The notes below the pieces were generated by a model. The model searched no databases. It saw nothing but the letters and a program-made list of their open reading frames with translations, and was not told the DNA's origin. A stretch of 25,307 nt of DNA from Deltaproteobacteria bacterium. GTDB lineage: Bacteria; Desulfobacterota; DSM-4660; Desulfatiglandales; B25-G16. Both the position numbers and the translations under genes were made by a program. How positions within the stretch are numbered: the stretch's first letter is position 1; each line of letters begins with the position of its first letter. The stretch lies in contig CP070660.1 in NCBI GenBank assembly GCA_020355145.1, forward strand, positions 1,552,113 through 1,577,419, in the 5' to 3' direction. This document shows positions 8,799 through 21,659 of the stretch, piece after piece.

Positions 8799-8828
8799 CT
8801 GACCTCTCCTCAAATTGCTAAAGAAACT

Positions 8829-8884
8829 TTGCCTCAAACCGGCAAGGCACGAATTCTGCAACGAAATTCGAATATCGAAATTCG
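8829..8884 (+). repeat. Dispersed motif L, copy A: TTGCCTCAAACCG..AGGCACGA leading into heptamer repeats
   Basis: Shares an exact 13-mer, AGGCACGA and the 12-mer AATTCGAATATC with 20295-20356 on the opposite strand. Confidence 0.75.
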
Positions 8885-9011
8885 AAACAAATCCGAATGA
8901 CCAAAATTCAAATGTCCTAAGCCTAGAATTATTTAACCACAGCAAGTAAGGCTCTTGGCAGTTTGGAATTTTGAACATTTGGATTTCGATATTGTTTCGG
9001 ATTTCGGATTT
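8862..9011. repeat. Imperfect inverted repeat built from 7-nt units (CGAAATT/CGAAATC/CGAAACA)
   Basis: The left arm at about 8862-8916 (cgaaatt cgaatat cgaaatt cgaaaca aatc cgaatga ccaaaat tcaaatg) resembles the reverse complement of 8961-9011 (aaatc cgaaatc cgaaaca atat cgaaatc caaatgt tcaaaat tccaaac). Confidence 0.85.
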
Positions 9012-9057
9012 AAAATTCTCATTAGAATCTGGGTTTTATTTCTCCGCAAAAACTCGG

Positions 9058-9093
9058 CATAAATGTTAGGATCTCAGCTTATGTAGACGACTA
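9058..9093 (+). repeat. Dispersed element R, copy 1, overlapping the metK stop codon
   Basis: 9058-9089 matches 13653-13684 at 30 of 32 positions, followed by 1 nt and then the TAG of metK. Confidence 0.9.
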
Positions 9094-10248
9094 TAGGGCC
9101 TTTTTCAGTTTTTCAGCGAGATCTGTCTTCTCCCAGGTAAACTCCTCCAATTCACGCCCAAAGTGTCCGTAGCAGGCGGTCTTTTTGTATATAGGCCTTA
9201 AAAGGTCTAAGGTCTCAATCAAGGCAGCCGGCCTCATATCAAATTCCTTTTCTACCATTTTTGTCATCTCAGCACTGGGCACAACACCGGTTTCATAAGT
9301 ATCAACCATTAAACCAACCGGTTGTGCCTTGCCAATGGTGTAGGCTACCTGGATCTCACACTTTTCAGCCAGACCAGCAGCAACTATATTCTTGGCAATG
9401 TAGCGACACATATAGGAGGCGCTCCTATCTACCTTGGATGGATCCTTGCCGGAAAATGCACCGCCACCATGGTGACCAAATCCTCCGTAGGCATCCATTA
9501 TAACCTTCCTACCGGTCATCCCACAATCTCCCAGGGGACCGCCAGTAACAAATCTACCAGTAGTATTTACAAAAAACTCTGTGTTTTTATCAATCATCTC
9601 AGGTGGGATAACCGCCTTTATCACCTCTTCAATAATTGCCTCTCTTAAGGTATCGTAATCGACCTCAGGGGAGTGCTGGGCTGCAATAACAACTGTCTGA
9701 ACAGTAGTAGGTTTTAAATCTATATATCGAACTGTTACCTGAGATTTTCCATCTGGCCTCAGCCATGGAAGGCTTTCGGATTTGCGGACATGGGCAAGCC
9801 TTTGGGTAAGGCCATGGGCAAGGTAAATAGGCATTGGCATAAAAACAGGGGTGTCAGTGCAGGCGTACCCGAACATGAGTCCCTGATCACCTGCTCCCTT
9901 CTCCTTGAAAAGACCAGTACCATTAACTCCCTGGGCAATGTCAGCTGACTGTTTGTCAATGCTTGTAATAACGGCACACGTCTCCCAGTCAAAGCCCATG
10001 GATGAGTCGTTGTAGCCTATCTCCTTTATGGTCCGTCTGGCAATCTCCGGCATCTCCACATAACAACTGGTCGTTATCTCCCCTGCAATAACTGTCATAC
10101 CTGTAGTAACCAGGGTCTCACAGGCTACCCTTCCATATTTGTCCAGGCCTATAATCTCATCAAGTACGGCATCAGAGATCTGATCAGCTATCTTGTCCGG
10201 ATGTCCCTCGGTTACAGACTCAGATGTGAATAGGAAATCGATGTTCAT
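9091..10248 (-). CDS. metK: S-adenosylmethionine synthetase
   Basis: [41 protein letters not shown]. Confidence 0.98.
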
Positions 10249-12682: not shown

Positions 12683-13561
12683 CTAAATAACATTGACTTT
12701 ATTGTGTGTCAAGAGAGATGTCTTATCTGGTGTTAAGGCAGAACTCAGTCGTATGTATTCATCTATAGTGAGGTTCTCGGCCCTTCTTTTTGGGTTAATG
12801 AGGCACTCCTCAAGGGCCTTTGCTATCATTTCCCTGGGTACAGACACCATTCCCCTCTCAAGGGAATTAAGGATTGTCTTCCTCCGACAACTAAATGCTG
12901 CCTTGACAATCCTATGGAAAGACTCCTCGTTTTCTGCCTGAAATGGGTATGGCCTCTCAAGGTCAATCTCCAAAACCATAGAATCCACCTTTGGTTTGGG
13001 GTAAAAGGCCTGCCTTTTAATCTTGATAAGCGGAGATATCCGGGCATAGTATTGACTGATGACACTAAGGGCCCCGTAGTCCTTTCTATTTGGCCCAGCA
13101 GTCAAACGTTGTGCAAATTCATATTGAAACATCAGGACCGCACTTTTTATATAGTCTCGATTTACTATAAGCCTTTCCAGGAATGGAGACGAGATATTAT
13201 AGGGGAGATTACCTAATACCTTGATCTTTTGTTGATATCTATCATAGATCTCCTTAACATCGAACTTCAGGATATCCCCGGAGATAAATGTTATCTTTTC
13301 GTTGTCTTTCAGTGGCACCCTCTCCTTTAGGATAGCTATCAATAATGGATCTTTCTCCACAGCCACCACATGAGAAATGTGGGGGAGGATTGGGATCGTT
13401 AGGGCCCCTAAACCTGACCCTATTTCTACAACCACATCCTTATTATCAAATCTTGCATGGGTAATGATCTTATTGATTATGCCAGGGTCTTCCAGAAAGT
13501 GTTGACCCAGTCTCTTCCTGGGTCTAAGCCCTGATTTAGTTAACAAGGCCCTAGTGCTCAT
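12683..13561 (-). CDS. rsmA: 16S rRNA (adenine-N6)-dimethyltransferase
   Basis: LGQHFL, VVEIGSGLGALT, GNLPYNISSP, MFQYE.A.RL, F.P.PKVDS, F..RRKTI.N, RAENL. Confidence 0.96.
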   Translation of the reverse strand: MSTRALLTKSGLRPRKRLGQHFLEDPGIINKIITHARFDNKDVVVEIGSGLGALTIPILPHISHVVAVEKDPLLIAILKERVPLKDNEKITFISGDILKFDVKEIYDRYQQKIKVLGNLPYNISSPFLERLIVNRDYIKSAVLMFQYEFAQRLTAGPNRKDYGALSVISQYYARISPLIKIKRQAFYPKPKVDSMVLEIDLERPYPFQAENEESFHRIVKAAFSCRRKTILNSLERGMVSVPREMIAKALEECLINPKRRAENLTIDEYIRLSSALTPDKTSLLTHNKVNVI

Positions 13562-13597
13562 TGTGTTTGTTGCGTCCTTTGAGTTTATAGGATTTTA
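13561..13597 (-). repeat. Degenerate 9-nt periodic repeat (AAACTCAAT/AAACCCAAT family) abutting the rsmA ATG
   Basis: Forward ttgtgtttg ttgcgtcct ttgagttta taggatttt resembles the gtttattgg units at 19619-19654. Confidence 0.45.
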
Positions 13598-13649
13598 GCA
13601 CAAAAAGCTCAGGAAATTAATTATTCCAAAAAGGTAGCTTGAGAAGGCA

Positions 13650-13689
13650 TGACATAAATGTTAAGATCTTAGCTTATGTAGACGTCTAG
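13650..13689 (+). repeat. Dispersed element R, copy 2, overlapping the tsaD stop codon
   Basis: TGACATAAATGTTAAGATCTTAGCTTATGTAGACGTCTAG, with internal palindromes TAAGATCTTA and TAGACGTCTA. The final CTA is the tsaD TAG. Confidence 0.9.
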
Positions 13690-14705
13690 ATCTGATCTAG
13701 AGGAAATCTCGACCTTGCATCCAAGGTTAGATCATCCCCCTGGCCTTTTATTATCCTATGATAAGCGGCGACAGCTATCATAGCCCCATTATCTGTACAT
13801 AATTCCGGACTTGGGATATACAGATCAATTTCCCTTTTAGCCATCACCTCTTGTAAATTACAGCGTAAATAGTTGTTTCTGGCTACTCCTCCCGCTAGCA
13901 CAACGGAGTTTGCACCGACTTGGGCGGCGGCCGCAATCACCTTATCTATTAGGATATCAACCACTGCGGCCTGAAAGGATGCGGCTATATCTGCTATCTT
14001 GATCTTATCGTCGCACCCTTTTTGAAGGCGCCATTTCCTGACATAAAGGGCAACAGCAGTCTTGAGGCCACTAAAGCTGAAGTCAAGAGAGTCTTTGGAT
14101 AGGTAGGCCCTTGGAAAACCAGCGGCCTCAGGCCGGCCTTTTGCAGCCAGTTTCTCTATTACAGGGCCACCTGGATAACCCAGTTCCAGAAGTTTTGCGA
14201 TCTTATCGAATGCCTCTCCAGCGGCATCGTCCAAGGTCTGACCCAACACGGTATAATCCCCAAAATCTCTGACCTGATAGATGTTTGTATGGCCACCTGA
14301 AACAGTAAGGGCCACGAAGGGGAAGGGGGGACACCTCTTTTCCAAGAAGATAGAGAGGATATGCCCCTCCAGGTGATTGATTCCTATTAGGGGGATATTG
14401 TTGGCATAGCTAAAGGCCTTGGCGAAATTGATGCCAACTAGGAGGGCACCAACAAGACCAGGCCCCACAGTAACCGCTATTGCATCAATATCATTACTGT
14501 TGAGGTGAGCCCTTCTTAGGGACTCCCTAACAACCCAAACGATATTCCTAATATGTTCTCTTGAGGCAAGTTCCGGGACTACCCCACCATATCGGTGGTG
14601 GACAATGACCTGAGAGTTGACAATATTAGATAATAATCTCTTTCCATCTTCTACTATTGCGGTGCAGGTGTCATCGCAGGAGGTATCTATACCGAGTATA
14701 ATCAT
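13686..14705 (-). CDS. tsaD: tRNA threonylcarbamoyltransferase
   Basis: GIDTSCDDT, GGVVPELASR.H, GPGL.GAL.VG, NHLEGH, VSGGHT, DDAAGEAFDK, FSFSGLKTA, CTDNGAMIA. Confidence 0.98.
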   Translation of the reverse strand: MIILGIDTSCDDTCTAIVEDGKRLLSNIVNSQVIVHHRYGGVVPELASREHIRNIVWVVRESLRRAHLNSNDIDAIAVTVGPGLVGALLVGINFAKAFSYANNIPLIGINHLEGHILSIFLEKRCPPFPFVALTVSGGHTNIYQVRDFGDYTVLGQTLDDAAGEAFDKIAKLLELGYPGGPVIEKLAAKGRPEAAGFPRAYLSKDSLDFSFSGLKTAVALYVRKWRLQKGCDDKIKIADIAASFQAAVVDILIDKVIAAAAQVGANSVVLAGGVARNNYLRCNLQEVMAKREIDLYIPSPELCTDNGAMIAVAAYHRIIKGQGDDLTLDARSRFPLDQI

Positions 14706-19684: not shown

Positions 19685-20071
19685 TTATGTGGCACCTTTT
19701 TCAAGTATTACTACAGCTATGCCATAGTAACTCTCATCTGAAAGGGTAACGTACCACCTTCTTATTCCCTCCTTATGACAGAGATTAAGGGCCTCTCCAG
19801 TCACATTAAGCTCAGGCCGACCATTTGGGTCTTGAACTATCTCTATATCCCGCCACCTGATACCCTTTTTCATACCTAAACCTATCGCCTTTGAAAAGGC
19901 CTCCTTGGCAGCGAAACGCAGGGCAAGGGAGGAAACTGACTTTGCACCTCGAAAGCAGAAATCAATCTCCTGGTCAGTAAGTATCCTATTTATAAACCTT
20001 TTTCCCCATTTATCTACTACCCTTCCCATCCTCCTTATATTTACAATATCTACACCAATACCATAAATCAT
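19685..20071 (-). CDS. acpS: Holo-[acyl-carrier-protein] synthase
   Basis: IYGIGVDIV, RFAAKEAFSKAIG.G, GRP, TLSD. Confidence 0.97.
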   Translation of the reverse strand: MIYGIGVDIVNIRRMGRVVDKWGKRFINRILTDQEIDFCFRGAKSVSSLALRFAAKEAFSKAIGLGMKKGIRWRDIEIVQDPNGRPELNVTGEALNLCHKEGIRRWYVTLSDESYYGIAVVILEKGAT

Positions 20072-20109
20072 CGCATTGTTATCCTCTTGCGAAATTCTAA
20101 CAGGGTAAA

Positions 20110-20169
20110 CTAGATATCTTCTTAGCTCAAGATCTTAACATTTATCCGCCTGGGGCGGATTTATGTCAA
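20110..20169 (-). repeat. Dispersed element R, copy 3, interrupted by a 13-bp palindrome
   Basis: Minus strand TTGACATAAAT[CCGCCCCAGGCGG ATAAAT]GTTAAGATCTTGAGCTAAGAAGATATCTAG. Removing the bracket restores the 21-mer TGACATAAATGTTAAGATCTT found in copy 2. Confidence 0.85.
20140..20164. mobile_element. 13-bp palindromic insertion CCGCC-TGG-GGCGG flanked by a direct ATTTAT duplication
   Basis: ATTTAT (20140-20145), then CCGCCTGGGGCGG (20146-20158), then ATTTAT (20159-20164). The empty-site allele is seen in element R copies 1 and 2. Mobility itself is inferred. Confidence 0.6.
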
Positions 20170-20294
20170 GCCCTCCCTGGCGCGACGTGATTGTAAAAAG
20201 CCATTGCCGCTTTAATATTAATGATGCAGGAGCTATAAAATTAAGTCCTTGCATGCCAGGTCTGGGCCAGGGTTCTAGCGGTGAAATGAAATCC

Positions 20295-20356
20295 CGACTT
20301 TGATATTCGAATTCCGTATTTTCTTGCTAACATCGTGCCTAGTCGGTTTGAGGCAA
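20295..20356 (-). repeat. Dispersed motif L, copy B, 7 nt after the pdxJ stop
   Basis: Minus strand TTGCCTCAAACCGACTAGGCACGA...GGAATTCGAATATCAAAGTCG aligns with 8829-8884. Confidence 0.75.
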
Positions 20357-20363
20357 GGCTCCA

Positions 20364-21083
20364 CTAGAATTGGGATACCAATTTAACCATCTCGCGGACG
20401 GCCTGATCTATTCCCACCATCACTGTCCTGGCAATGATGCTATGGCCAATGCTATATTCCTCTATCTCGGGAATAGATGAAAATCTCTTTATGTTCACAT
20501 AATTAAGGCCATGCCCGGCGTGTACCTTCAGCTTGAGCCTGCTCGCTAACTTCGCTGCCTCCTTGATCTTTTCAAGATTTCTCAGGATATCTGATTCTTT
20601 TCTTGCCTCACTGTATTCTCTCGTGTTGATCTCAATTATATCTGCCCCTGCATTAAGGGATTCTCCTATCCGATCAGGGTCTGGATCAATAAAGAAGCTG
20701 ACTGAAATACCGGCCTCCTTTAGTTTGTCGGTAACCTTTTTGTATTCCTCTTTGTTGCCTGCAACATCAAGGCCACCTTCGGTGGTTAACTCTTCCCTTC
20801 TTTCTGGGACGAGTGTTACCACATCCGGTTTAATGTCAAGGGCAATGCCAACCAATTCCTTAGCAGGTGCCATCTCCAGATTCAATTTAGTCTTGACTAC
20901 CTTTTTAAGTAGGCTTAGGTCCCTATCCTTGATATGTCGCCTATCCATTCTCAAATGACATATGATTCCTTCAGCACCAGCTAATTCAGCTATACCAGCA
21001 GCCAAAACTGGGTCCGGCTCATCTACTCCCCTAGCTTCGCGGATCGTTGCAATATGATCAACATTAACAGATAAAAGGGCCAT
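20364..21083 (-). CDS. pdxJ: Pyridoxine 5'-phosphate synthase
   Basis: [53 protein letters not shown]. Confidence 0.97.
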
Positions 21084-21120
21084 AGTAATTAACTCGTCAT
21101 TTAATTAAGCCTTTTCGTAA

Positions 21121-21146
21121 CTAAAGACCTTAAGATTTATGTCAAG
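21121..21146 (-). repeat. Dispersed element R, partial copy 4 (promoter-like, upstream of pdxJ)
   Basis: CTTGACATAAATCTTAAGGTCTTTAG matches the de-interrupted copy 3 at 23 of 26 positions. Confidence 0.6.
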
Positions 21147-21182
21147 TTTTATCACGCTGCCTTTTTGGGCTAAATAGTCTCT

Positions 21183-21230
21183 GGAGTTTGTTCTGTTAAA
21201 GCCCCATGAACTCAATCAACACAACACACA
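21183..21230. repeat. Degenerate 9-nt periodic repeat pair abutting the ybeY stop
   Basis: ccccatgaa ctcaatcaa cacaacaca (21202-21228) resembles the reverse complement of 19619-19654. GGAGTTTGTTCTGTT (21183-21197) is a weak opposite arm. Confidence 0.45.
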
Positions 21231-21659
21231 CTAGTAATTTAACAACCGTTCCGTCTCCTCTTCCATCGTGCGGGCCTCCTCCTCTGACCTTTCGTGGTCA
21301 TAGCCTAAAAGGTGTAAGAGACCATGAATTGAGAGTCTATCAATGGTCCTATTAAGGCTCTCACCAATCCTTTTCGCATCCCTTATAGCAGCATCTAAGG
21401 ATATGACTATATCTCCCAGCATTGGTGTCTCAGGCTCAGTATGATCACCATCTCTCATTGGAAAGGCAAGGACATTTGTCGGGCCTTCTCTTTTGAGAAA
21501 ACGGCAGTTCAGTTCTGCTATGTTTTTATCATCTGTAAACAGTAAGCTCAGTTCACAGTTATGGTATCCCAAGCCTTCTAAGATCCTCTTTAGCTTCATC
21601 CTTATCTTCCCGGGATCTATGTTTCTCATGGGGTGCAGGCAACTTATCTGAATCTCCAT
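21231..21659 (-). CDS. ybeY: rRNA maturation endoribonuclease YbeY
   Basis: ELSLLFTDD..I.ELN, PTNVLAFP, LGDIVIS, HGLLHLLGYDH. GAGGGA precedes ATG 21659. Confidence 0.95.
   Translation of the reverse strand: MEIQISCLHPMRNIDPGKIRMKLKRILEGLGYHNCELSLLFTDDKNIAELNCRFLKREGPTNVLAFPMRDGDHTEPETPMLGDIVISLDAAIRDAKRIGESLNRTIDRLSIHGLLHLLGYDHERSEEEARTMEEETERLLNY

Follow-up and report, generated by a model that had tools for sequence, protein, structure and literature searches.

A 13-nt GC palindrome in the pdxJ-acpS spacer as a variable module of a dispersed intergenic repeat

At positions 20140-20164 of its + strand, the stretch of DNA analysed here (25,307 nt, hereafter the window) reads ATTTAT-CCGCCTGGGGCGG-ATTTAT, a GC palindrome set between two identical hexamers in the spacer that separates pdxJ from acpS. 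Two questions are raised by this arrangement, namely how the palindrome reached its position and whether it alters the expression of the gene downstream. The first-pass annotation had considered an ultra-short mobile palindrome or the footprint of a larger excised element, and a rewired acpS promoter. The reading that we favour, with a probability of about 70%, is that the palindrome is one of a set of clade-restricted, very small GC hairpin modules located in the apical loop of an AT-rich quasi-palindrome, and that it came to this locus in a block carrying the long form of a dispersed repeat, here called R (R-long). That it represents a variable module of a dispersed repeat, whatever its origin, is held with high confidence.

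The palindrome and its host repeat

Together with its adjoining letters, the palindrome forms a 15-nt unit, TCCGCC..GGCGGA, in which case the flanking duplication is the 4-bp TAAA. All neighbouring genes are encoded on the - strand, where the region reads cTTGACATAAAT[CCGCCCCAGGCGGATAAAT]GTTAAGATCTTGAG...ATATCTAG and ends approximately 40 nt before the acpS start. The window contains a single match to the pattern CCGCC-N3-GGCGG, where 0.01 would be expected, and the source genome (1.68 Mb, 44% G+C) contains 19; there it is the commonest among all palindromes with a 5-bp stem and a 3-nt loop; the chance expectation for the whole genome is approximately 0.4 (our own estimate from 44% GC).

A profile search of the genome retrieved 24 copies of R, all of them outside open reading frames (ORFs) of at least 90 aa, with a consensus that is roughly aaaCTTGACATAAATGTTAAGATCTTAGCTTATATAGACrkCTAG. 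Copies 1 and 2 of the window (table 1), which lie on the + strand and are therefore inverted relative to copy 3, contain the hexamer once, in CATAAATG, the uninterrupted sequence being CATAAATGTTA; a better ‘empty’ paralogue of copy 3, with the same upstream module, is found at genome positions 1601435-1601484. The contrast drawn by the first-pass annotation, with a single ATTTAT in copies 1 and 2 and a doubled one around the palindrome in copy 3, is confirmed by the sequence, and the net gain of 19 bp was correctly given. The same 19-base extra is present at the identical position in 6 of the 24 genome copies, with the core TTGACAT(A/T)AAT-CCGCC(C/T)CAGGCGG-ATAAAT-GTTAAG. The 6-bp duplication, on the other hand, stands only in part: it is perfect at copy 3 but in only two of these six long copies, the other four reading ATTAAT...ATAAAT on the element strand, that is, an imperfect duplication. 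A single occurrence, or an error of assembly, had been named as the outcome that would speak against a mobile unit; the structure, which recurs at six loci of this genome and in numerous others, is no artefact of assembly. At least three different upstream modules are each combined with the long as well as the short form, and so are the two right-arm subtypes.

Table 1. Features of the window discussed in the text, with positions counted from its first letter.
Feature	Position	Strand	Remarks
acpS (PF01648)	19685..20071	-	gene downstream of the block
pdxJ (PF03740)	20364..21083	-	gene upstream of the block, which begins right after its TAG
254-bp mosaic block	20110..20363	-	from behind the pdxJ TAG stop to the acpS leader
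Module ‘a’	20171..20272	-	separate 102-nt repeat, TIR-like ends CCCTGGCCCAGAC ... GTCGCGCCAGGG
R copy 1, hairpin-less	9047..9096	+	terminal CTA is the metK stop codon on the other strand
R copy 2, hairpin-less	13642..13691	+	terminal CTAG holds the tsaD stop codon
R copy 3, long form	20110..20170	-	from CTTGACAT to the terminal CTAG
R copy 4, hairpin-less	21103..21152	-	diverged and weaker; upstream of pdxJ
Extended 37-nt stem-loop	20134..20170	-	CTTGACAT-AAAT-[GC hairpin]-ATAA-ATGTTAAG; from folding energy
Left ATTTAT hexamer	20140..20145	.	ATAAAT on the element strand; separator logic
13-nt GC palindrome	20146..20158	.	CCGCC-TGG-GGCGG, type-1 hairpin module; read from sequence
Right ATTTAT hexamer	20159..20164	.	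read from sequence

The flanks of R, CTTGACAT and ATGTTAAG, are an inverted repeat of each other and thus pair into a small hairpin, whose 4-nt loop TAAA houses the GC module. Indeed, the apex of the quasi-palindrome proper to R is the position of the module, and with the unit taken as TCCGCC..GGCGGA, the target that is duplicated, TAAA, coincides exactly with the apical loop. Computed folding gives -1.4 and -5.2 kcal/mol for hairpin-less copies, with a stem of 5-7 bp and the loop TAAA (CAAA in one copy), whereas the long form reaches -18.4 kcal/mol (z -6.9) as folded from the gene strand and -15.9 as folded from its complement; the module thus turns a weak hairpin into a strong stem-loop of 16-17 bp. 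In hairpin-bearing copies the left hexamer is mostly ATTAAT and in a few cases ATTTAT, progressively more complementary to the right ATAAAT; this shift towards complementarity is confined to copies with the hairpin. Variants of the stem itself comprise one compensatory pair (CCACC/GGTGG), one G-T wobble and approximately five disrupting changes; since this variation is mostly decay, it does not demonstrate selection on the hairpin.

At its other extremity, R ends in a small dyad, AGACGTCT in copy 2 (13680-13687) and AGATATCT in copy 3 (20111-20118), the two differing by a double change that keeps the palindrome.

The block between pdxJ and acpS

A 254-bp mosaic, bounded on both sides by TCTAGT (20363-20368 and 20109-20114) and subdivided by internal CTAGs, has copy 3 as its final module. 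Its parts are an L-end that contains a TGCCT-N10-AGGCA hairpin, a short stretch rich in AT, module ‘a’ and R-long. Module ‘a’ lies directly 5' of CTTGACAT here, at four other loci and in the related genome G006. In two congeners (G003 and G004), both block and R are absent from this locus, and the pdxJ TAG is separated from the acpS start by approximately 40 nt (...TTTAG followed by kTTACCC..TTTCGCAA..ATG).

Public metagenomes carry both states of the locus. A 1293-nt contig from run X5, approximately 99% identical, joins position 20108 to position 20363, with six letters that fit both sides, whereas a contig from run X3 passes from acpS into R and accordingly represents a strain with the block. 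The block is therefore polymorphic between close strains. An empty allele, which the first-pass annotation had suggested looking for, does exist in these data; what it lacks is the whole 254-bp block and not the 19 bp. A difference of the 19 bp only, at 20146, was found in no contig, those of X1 and X3 breaking inside repeats and being uninformative there and those of the RNA run X19 being short, with ends of no use, and no gain or loss of the 19 bp in situ was caught at any orthologous locus. Four R-long loci examined in congeners have nothing but repeat modules in common with this genome and are thus not orthologous to its long loci.

Units of approximately 62 nt nearly identical to R-long are found elsewhere, with 95% identity at genome position 643264 and 94-98% in congeners. 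Because the block is present or absent as a unit and R-long occurs at other loci, the 19 bp most probably reached the pdxJ-acpS locus inside R-long and were not inserted here. This bears directly on the strict form of the initial proposal, in which an autonomous ultra-short palindrome inserted de novo into copy 3, a staggered cut duplicating 4-6 bp. The perfect ATTTAT flanks of copy 3 and the module-like behaviour of such hairpins elsewhere in the family agree with this scenario; the R-long units at other loci, the strain difference that involves the entire block and the own genome, which offers no duplicated-flank unit beyond R, do not, and we consider it very unlikely.

Several observations concern the neighbourhood of the block rather than the palindrome. 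Wherever module ‘a’ is found in this genome (in the window and at 128, 397, 1098 and 1601 kb), it directly adjoins CTTGACAT of R and lacks a flanking duplication; in other genomes it occurs both with and without R, with GC palindromes nested inside. A composite ‘L...R’ was tried as the repeated unit and rejected, the L motif having only two exact and two related copies in the genome, and no terminal inverted repeats were found between the L and R ends. Repeat inserts make the pdxJ-acpS spacer a hotspot: in the family, no fewer than eight lineages have different ones immediately behind the pdxJ TAG. Another repeat, TAGTGyTTGTTGTGTT..ATTGAGTT (window 21202-21233 and 13561-13600; pdxJ loci L051 and L056 of genomes G013 and G035), starts exactly on TAG stops and often links two R copies, as at genome positions 1098434-1098611.

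Hairpin modules in the family and their origin

Among 31 relatives searched, nine contain the long form of R, all belonging to one Desulfobacterales family of sulfate reducers that live in sediments, and it was also retrieved from Desulfobacteraceae/Desulfobacterales metagenome-assembled genomes (MAGs) from sediments and seeps; R copies with such an insert occur in most genera of this family, and the hairpin form is common to several of them. A search with fixed anchors in 34 family genomes, the rows being counted by hand, returned 48 hairpin-less copies, approximately 12 with the 13-nt hairpin (type 1), 26 with an 18-nt hairpin CCGCC-NNAAGTCT-GGCGG (type 2) and five with truncated stumps such as CCGCCTGG or CCGCCAGGCGG. 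By size, the modules comprise the 13-nt form, seen in the source genus and one other, a form of 18-20 nt and decayed stumps. The type-2 hairpin, absent from the window's own genome, was detected in 21 of the 34 family genomes versus 2 of the 400 genomes searched elsewhere in the phylum; the latter are single hits at the level of the reversed-pattern control, and type 2 is thus essentially confined to the family. In a side observation, a contig binned as Chloroflexota (L019, DAOUZV010000125.1) holds a typical R-long and an L motif with a CCCGCC-AT-GGCGGG hairpin in its loop; this contig is probably a mis-binned member of the same Desulfobacterales family.

Modules also occur in series. In five genomes that were read on past the left half, tandem arrays are composed of type 2, ATAAAT, type 1, ATAAAT, or of the two types in reverse order, and one further GC palindrome is nested within a type-2 loop; one array of at least three hairpin units was found in the family. 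The repeat can consequently be written TTGACAT(W)AAT-[GC hairpin-ATAAAT]n-GTTAAGATC, where n ranges from 0 to 3, and what the first-pass annotation took for a duplicated flank is the separator of this hairpin-ATAAAT series.

The type-2 hairpin is likewise found outside R, as CCCGCC-ATAAGTCT-GGCGGG in at least five other conserved contexts of the family. For one of these, site C, both states are available: the filled form, ACGAAACCAG - hairpin - CCAGCAGCGC, equals the empty form ACGAAACCAGCAGCGC plus a 20-nt hairpin and a second CCAG, and the empty form has more than 30 copies in five genomes, with 0 in controls (exact copies: 11 in G010, 18 in G041). Site C and R belong to the same composite repeat and are 107 nt apart, and the combinations filled/filled, empty/empty and R-filled/C-empty were all found. 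For two further contexts, empty forms were at control level (B) or not found (E), and several recurrent type-2 contexts have no flanking direct repeat (e.g. CCTG...CCAG). In the own genome, 13 CCGCC-N3-GGCGG sites lie outside R, nine of them intergenic; no flanking duplication was detected at 12, the one exception having TCAA on either side. More generally, the CCGCC/GGCGG arms are readable as terminal inverted repeats (TIRs) with a 4-bp duplication at R (TAAA), at site C (CCAG) and at two single sites, but contexts B, D, E and several more are at odds with such a duplication.

According to the first-pass annotation, a mobile unit would be supported by numerous sites whose duplicated flanks differ. 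A scan for them fails in this genome, all six filled copies being at the identical R position. The notion of an ultra-short mobile palindrome is therefore retained in part: a discrete module with a duplicated target, arranged in tandem with a repeated separator and present at a second site (CCAG), is observed in the family, but the own genome, the TCAA site aside, shows no duplicated-flank unit outside R.

According to the mechanism that we propose, the host would be the quasi-palindrome CTTGACAT-TAAA-TGTTAAG, within the dispersed and always intergenic repeat R. The module would first have arisen by insertion into the 4-nt loop, duplicating its target (TAAA, read as ATAAAT), and R-long copies would then have spread within larger repeat blocks. 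The analysis brought to light no enzyme for such an insertion. The reverse polarity has to be weighed, with an ancestral long form from which hairpin-less R would derive by slippage or hairpin-stimulated deletion between ATAAAT repeats, the ‘duplication’ being then the substrate of the deletion. A hairpin bracketed by direct repeats is indeed a textbook substrate for precise deletion, the truncated apex forms point to a deletion-prone hairpin, and the same upstream modules and both right-arm subtypes accompany long and short forms. However, slippage on the 3-bp AAT in ATTAAT...ATAAAT predicts short copies with ATTAAT, and there are none in the 34 family genomes, as against 48 short copies with ATAAAT; moreover, the deletions seen are internal and retain both hexamers. 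Loss would leave unexplained both the repeated separators of the tandem arrays, which hold different hairpin types in both orders, and the perfect direct repeats that would have had to pre-exist around the hairpin at two unrelated sites. On these grounds gain by insertion is favoured over loss by slippage, and an ancestral long form seems unlikely.

Insertion with target duplication as the origin of the module is given about even odds or slightly better, considering that many contexts are without duplication and that no orthologous gain or loss was seen. In each genus, diagnostic letters are common to the hairpin-bearing copies, a pattern explained as well by amplification or gene conversion of one long-form master as by repeated insertion.

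As to the footprint of an excised larger element, terminal inverted repeats brought together might in principle account for the arms, and a flanking duplication accompanies them. Yet at 23 sites in five genomes, read 100 nt past TTGACATWAATCCGCC, the insert never exceeded 62 nt and was never coding, which argues against a footprint, and neither a longer element ended by CCGCC nor a transposase was encountered there. Loop sequences group into a small number of recurring classes, whose variants are typical of clades (YCA; NNAAGTCT); scars of imprecise excision would not be expected to do so. This origin, also raised by the first-pass annotation, is assigned a negligible probability. In the same vein, no autonomous parent element emerged from a non-exhaustive search, in which no R-site insert among the 23 was longer than 62 nt and the own genome gave a single weak DDE_Tnp_1 match, located elsewhere; as the length of the duplication is not consistently fixed and no parent element was seen in this search, assignment to the DDE-type MITEs (miniature inverted-repeat transposable elements) is unsupported.

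A bolder extension of the insertion hypothesis is that the family harbours active GC hairpin units of 13-20 nt which enter hairpin loops with a 4-bp target duplication, stack and nest there, and are moved by an activity, encoded by the host or by an element, that recognizes hairpin tips. We advance it tentatively, at clearly less than even odds. If true, these would be the smallest insertion units yet seen, a chromosomal equivalent to the GC clusters of mitochondria and the SDRs of cyanobacteria.

Known small repeats and likely effects

Several types of small repeats offer points of comparison. SDR1-8 of Nostoc punctiforme and relatives are said to have been presented by Elhai et al. in 2008 as ‘very small mobile repeated elements’, and to our knowledge no enzyme is known for them. 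The modules described here resemble SDRs in being hairpin-forming units of approximately 20 nt, far below MITE size, nested in one another, restricted to one coherent clade and located inside other repeats (heptamer tracts and mini-elements among them): indeed, they are dispersed units of 13-20 nt found inside R, site C and other repeats, nested or in tandem and clade-restricted. They differ in belonging to another phylum, with a sequence that is presumably unrelated, in their location at the apex of a host hairpin, with a repeated separator of 4-6 nt and short tandem arrays, and in the 13-nt form, smaller than any SDR known to us.

The BOX elements of pneumococci have fixed ends and an internal module of 45-60 nt present 0 to n times. 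R shares with them fixed end modules and an internal module variable in number, but BOX modules are not GC hairpins in a loop, and we know of no target duplication described for BOX elements.

The GC clusters of yeast mitochondria (e.g. GC42) are GC-rich hairpins with a duplicated AG target, polymorphic and of open mechanism (PMC4478555, citing Weiller et al. 1989). The likeness lies in GC hairpins set in AT-rich intergenic DNA, with a duplicated target, single or in tandem, and polymorphic in presence between strains; the differences lie in the compartment (an organelle versus a bacterial chromosome), the size (30-50 nt versus 13-20 nt) and the target, and no homology is implied.

REP/BIME and REPIN-RAYT elements consist of extragenic imperfect palindromes of 20-40 nt (PMC3116915, PMC3733652), the REP palindrome having a GTAG or CGTC tetranucleotide tag at one end (PMC3733652). 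The long form of R, an extragenic stem-loop of 37 nt, has the properties of such a palindrome, and other traits are shared: occurrence in either orientation, between operon genes and right after stop codons, organization in mosaics, restriction to a clade, vertical persistence, and a stable stem-loop in mRNA or DNA as the likely effect. In contrast, R is without REP doublets and its copies number tens, not hundreds. No GTAG or CGTC was found beside the hairpin in the R alignments, the flanks being CTTGAC..., ...GTTAAG or TAAA. The own genome encodes a single RAYT-like gene (a REP-type tyrosine transposase of 322 aa, 84.9 bits versus NF047646; L068:905-1946, genome 783 kb), bordered by a 47-nt inverted repeat whose sequence is not that of R, and twelve RAYT-like genes in relatives are flanked by GGGGTCA..TTGACA repeats and not by R or CCGCC hairpins. 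A RAYT link to R was accordingly rejected, the genome's gene and its twelve homologues having other inverted repeats at their ends. With neither a GTAG/CGTC tag nor a cognate RAYT, R does not qualify for membership of the REP/REPIN elements.

Concerning this RAYT-like gene itself, its 47-nt inverted repeat has no other full copy in the genome, two more sites being found at 6/26 mismatches; the repeat ends in CTTGACAT, the 8-mer that also forms the left arm of R, and no further link was found. The C-terminal helix-turn-helix region of the protein gives weak matches to DnaA-C and sigma-region-4.

The modules come nearest in behaviour to Nostoc SDRs and yeast mitochondrial GC clusters, and they can be classed with the very small dispersed hairpin repeats, among which they are new and specific to this clade, here as the internal module of a mosaic intergenic repeat. 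For SDRs and GC clusters, the spread of sequences of approximately 20 nt, too small to encode or bind much, is an unsolved problem, for which the present family supplies clean material: R with 0-3 modules, a second site both filled and empty, stumps left by apex deletion, and a strain-level polymorphism of the surrounding blocks, visible in public sediment metagenomes.

The second question was that of acpS expression, the 19 bp having been suspected of rewiring its promoter. R could be a regulatory module, with TTGACA as the -35 element of a sigma-70 promoter or as an operator, in which the hairpin would alter the spacing or add a binding site. Consistent with this, TTGACA is well conserved, as is TGTTAAGAT, which resembles an extended -10; 11 of the 24 R copies face a downstream gene start; and copy 2 has an upstream TTGAGA 17 nt from TAAGAT. 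However, TTGACA is devoid of a canonically spaced -10 hexamer in both the short and the long form: it is separated from TAAGAT by 7 nt (short) or 26 nt (long) and from TATATA by 20 or 39 nt, the only near-canonical pair of the long form, TTGACA-18-ATAAAT, fails the -10 rule, and promoter scans of both forms returned no -35/-10 pair 16-18 nt apart that uses this TTGACA. In addition, eight copies face the wrong way and four lie between convergent genes (one is unclear), the conservation of the whole 45 nt and of the flanking modules is the pattern of repeats and not of a regulon, and acpS of the congeners needs no promoter of its own. Given the missing partner of TTGACA, the mixed orientation and the position of acpS as the next cistron in relatives, promoter rewiring is unsupported, and a regulatory role of this kind is extremely unlikely. 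A MerR-type arrangement (TTGACA-20-TATATA with a dyad in the spacer) was rejected as well, the spacing varying between 14, 19, 20 and 39, many copies being without the final T of the -10, and orientation being mixed.

Other functional signals were sought in the same region. No intrinsic terminator was called on either strand; the tails of the GC stem are ATAAAT or ATTTAT, and with no T run following it the stem is not an intrinsic terminator. An Rfam scan of the window matched no family. A likeness of CATAAATGTTAAG to dif/Xer sites was discarded, as by eye it extends to 7 of 11 positions in one arm and leaves the other arm unmatched. The only demonstrable effect is structural, namely a strong predicted stem-loop in intercistronic DNA or RNA; by analogy with REP hairpins, a stable stem-loop in DNA and in the pdxJ-acpS intercistronic RNA, and not a changed promoter geometry, is the likely effect of the module.

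For annotation, it matters in practice that the mosaics lie directly on TAG stops and lengthen the spacers inside housekeeping operons (metK-ahcY, tsaD-rsmA and pdxJ-acpS). They also break assemblies and give rise to false N-terminal extensions.

Two minor observations come from the ahcY region of the window. The 501-aa ahcY ORF is over-extended at 8799-8978, the Pfam domain AdoHcyase beginning at residue 62; an ATG with the ribosome-binding site GAGGAGAGG is located at approximately 8798, and the first 60 codons are repeat sequence common to genome loci at 1082 kb and 1152 kb. Finally, a tract built of heptamers (TTCGAAA-type) and with many joints occupies window positions 8860-9010, where contig depth reaches 20-70x that of the surroundings in all four runs, which suggests a TTCGAAA-type simple repeat common to many sediment organisms.
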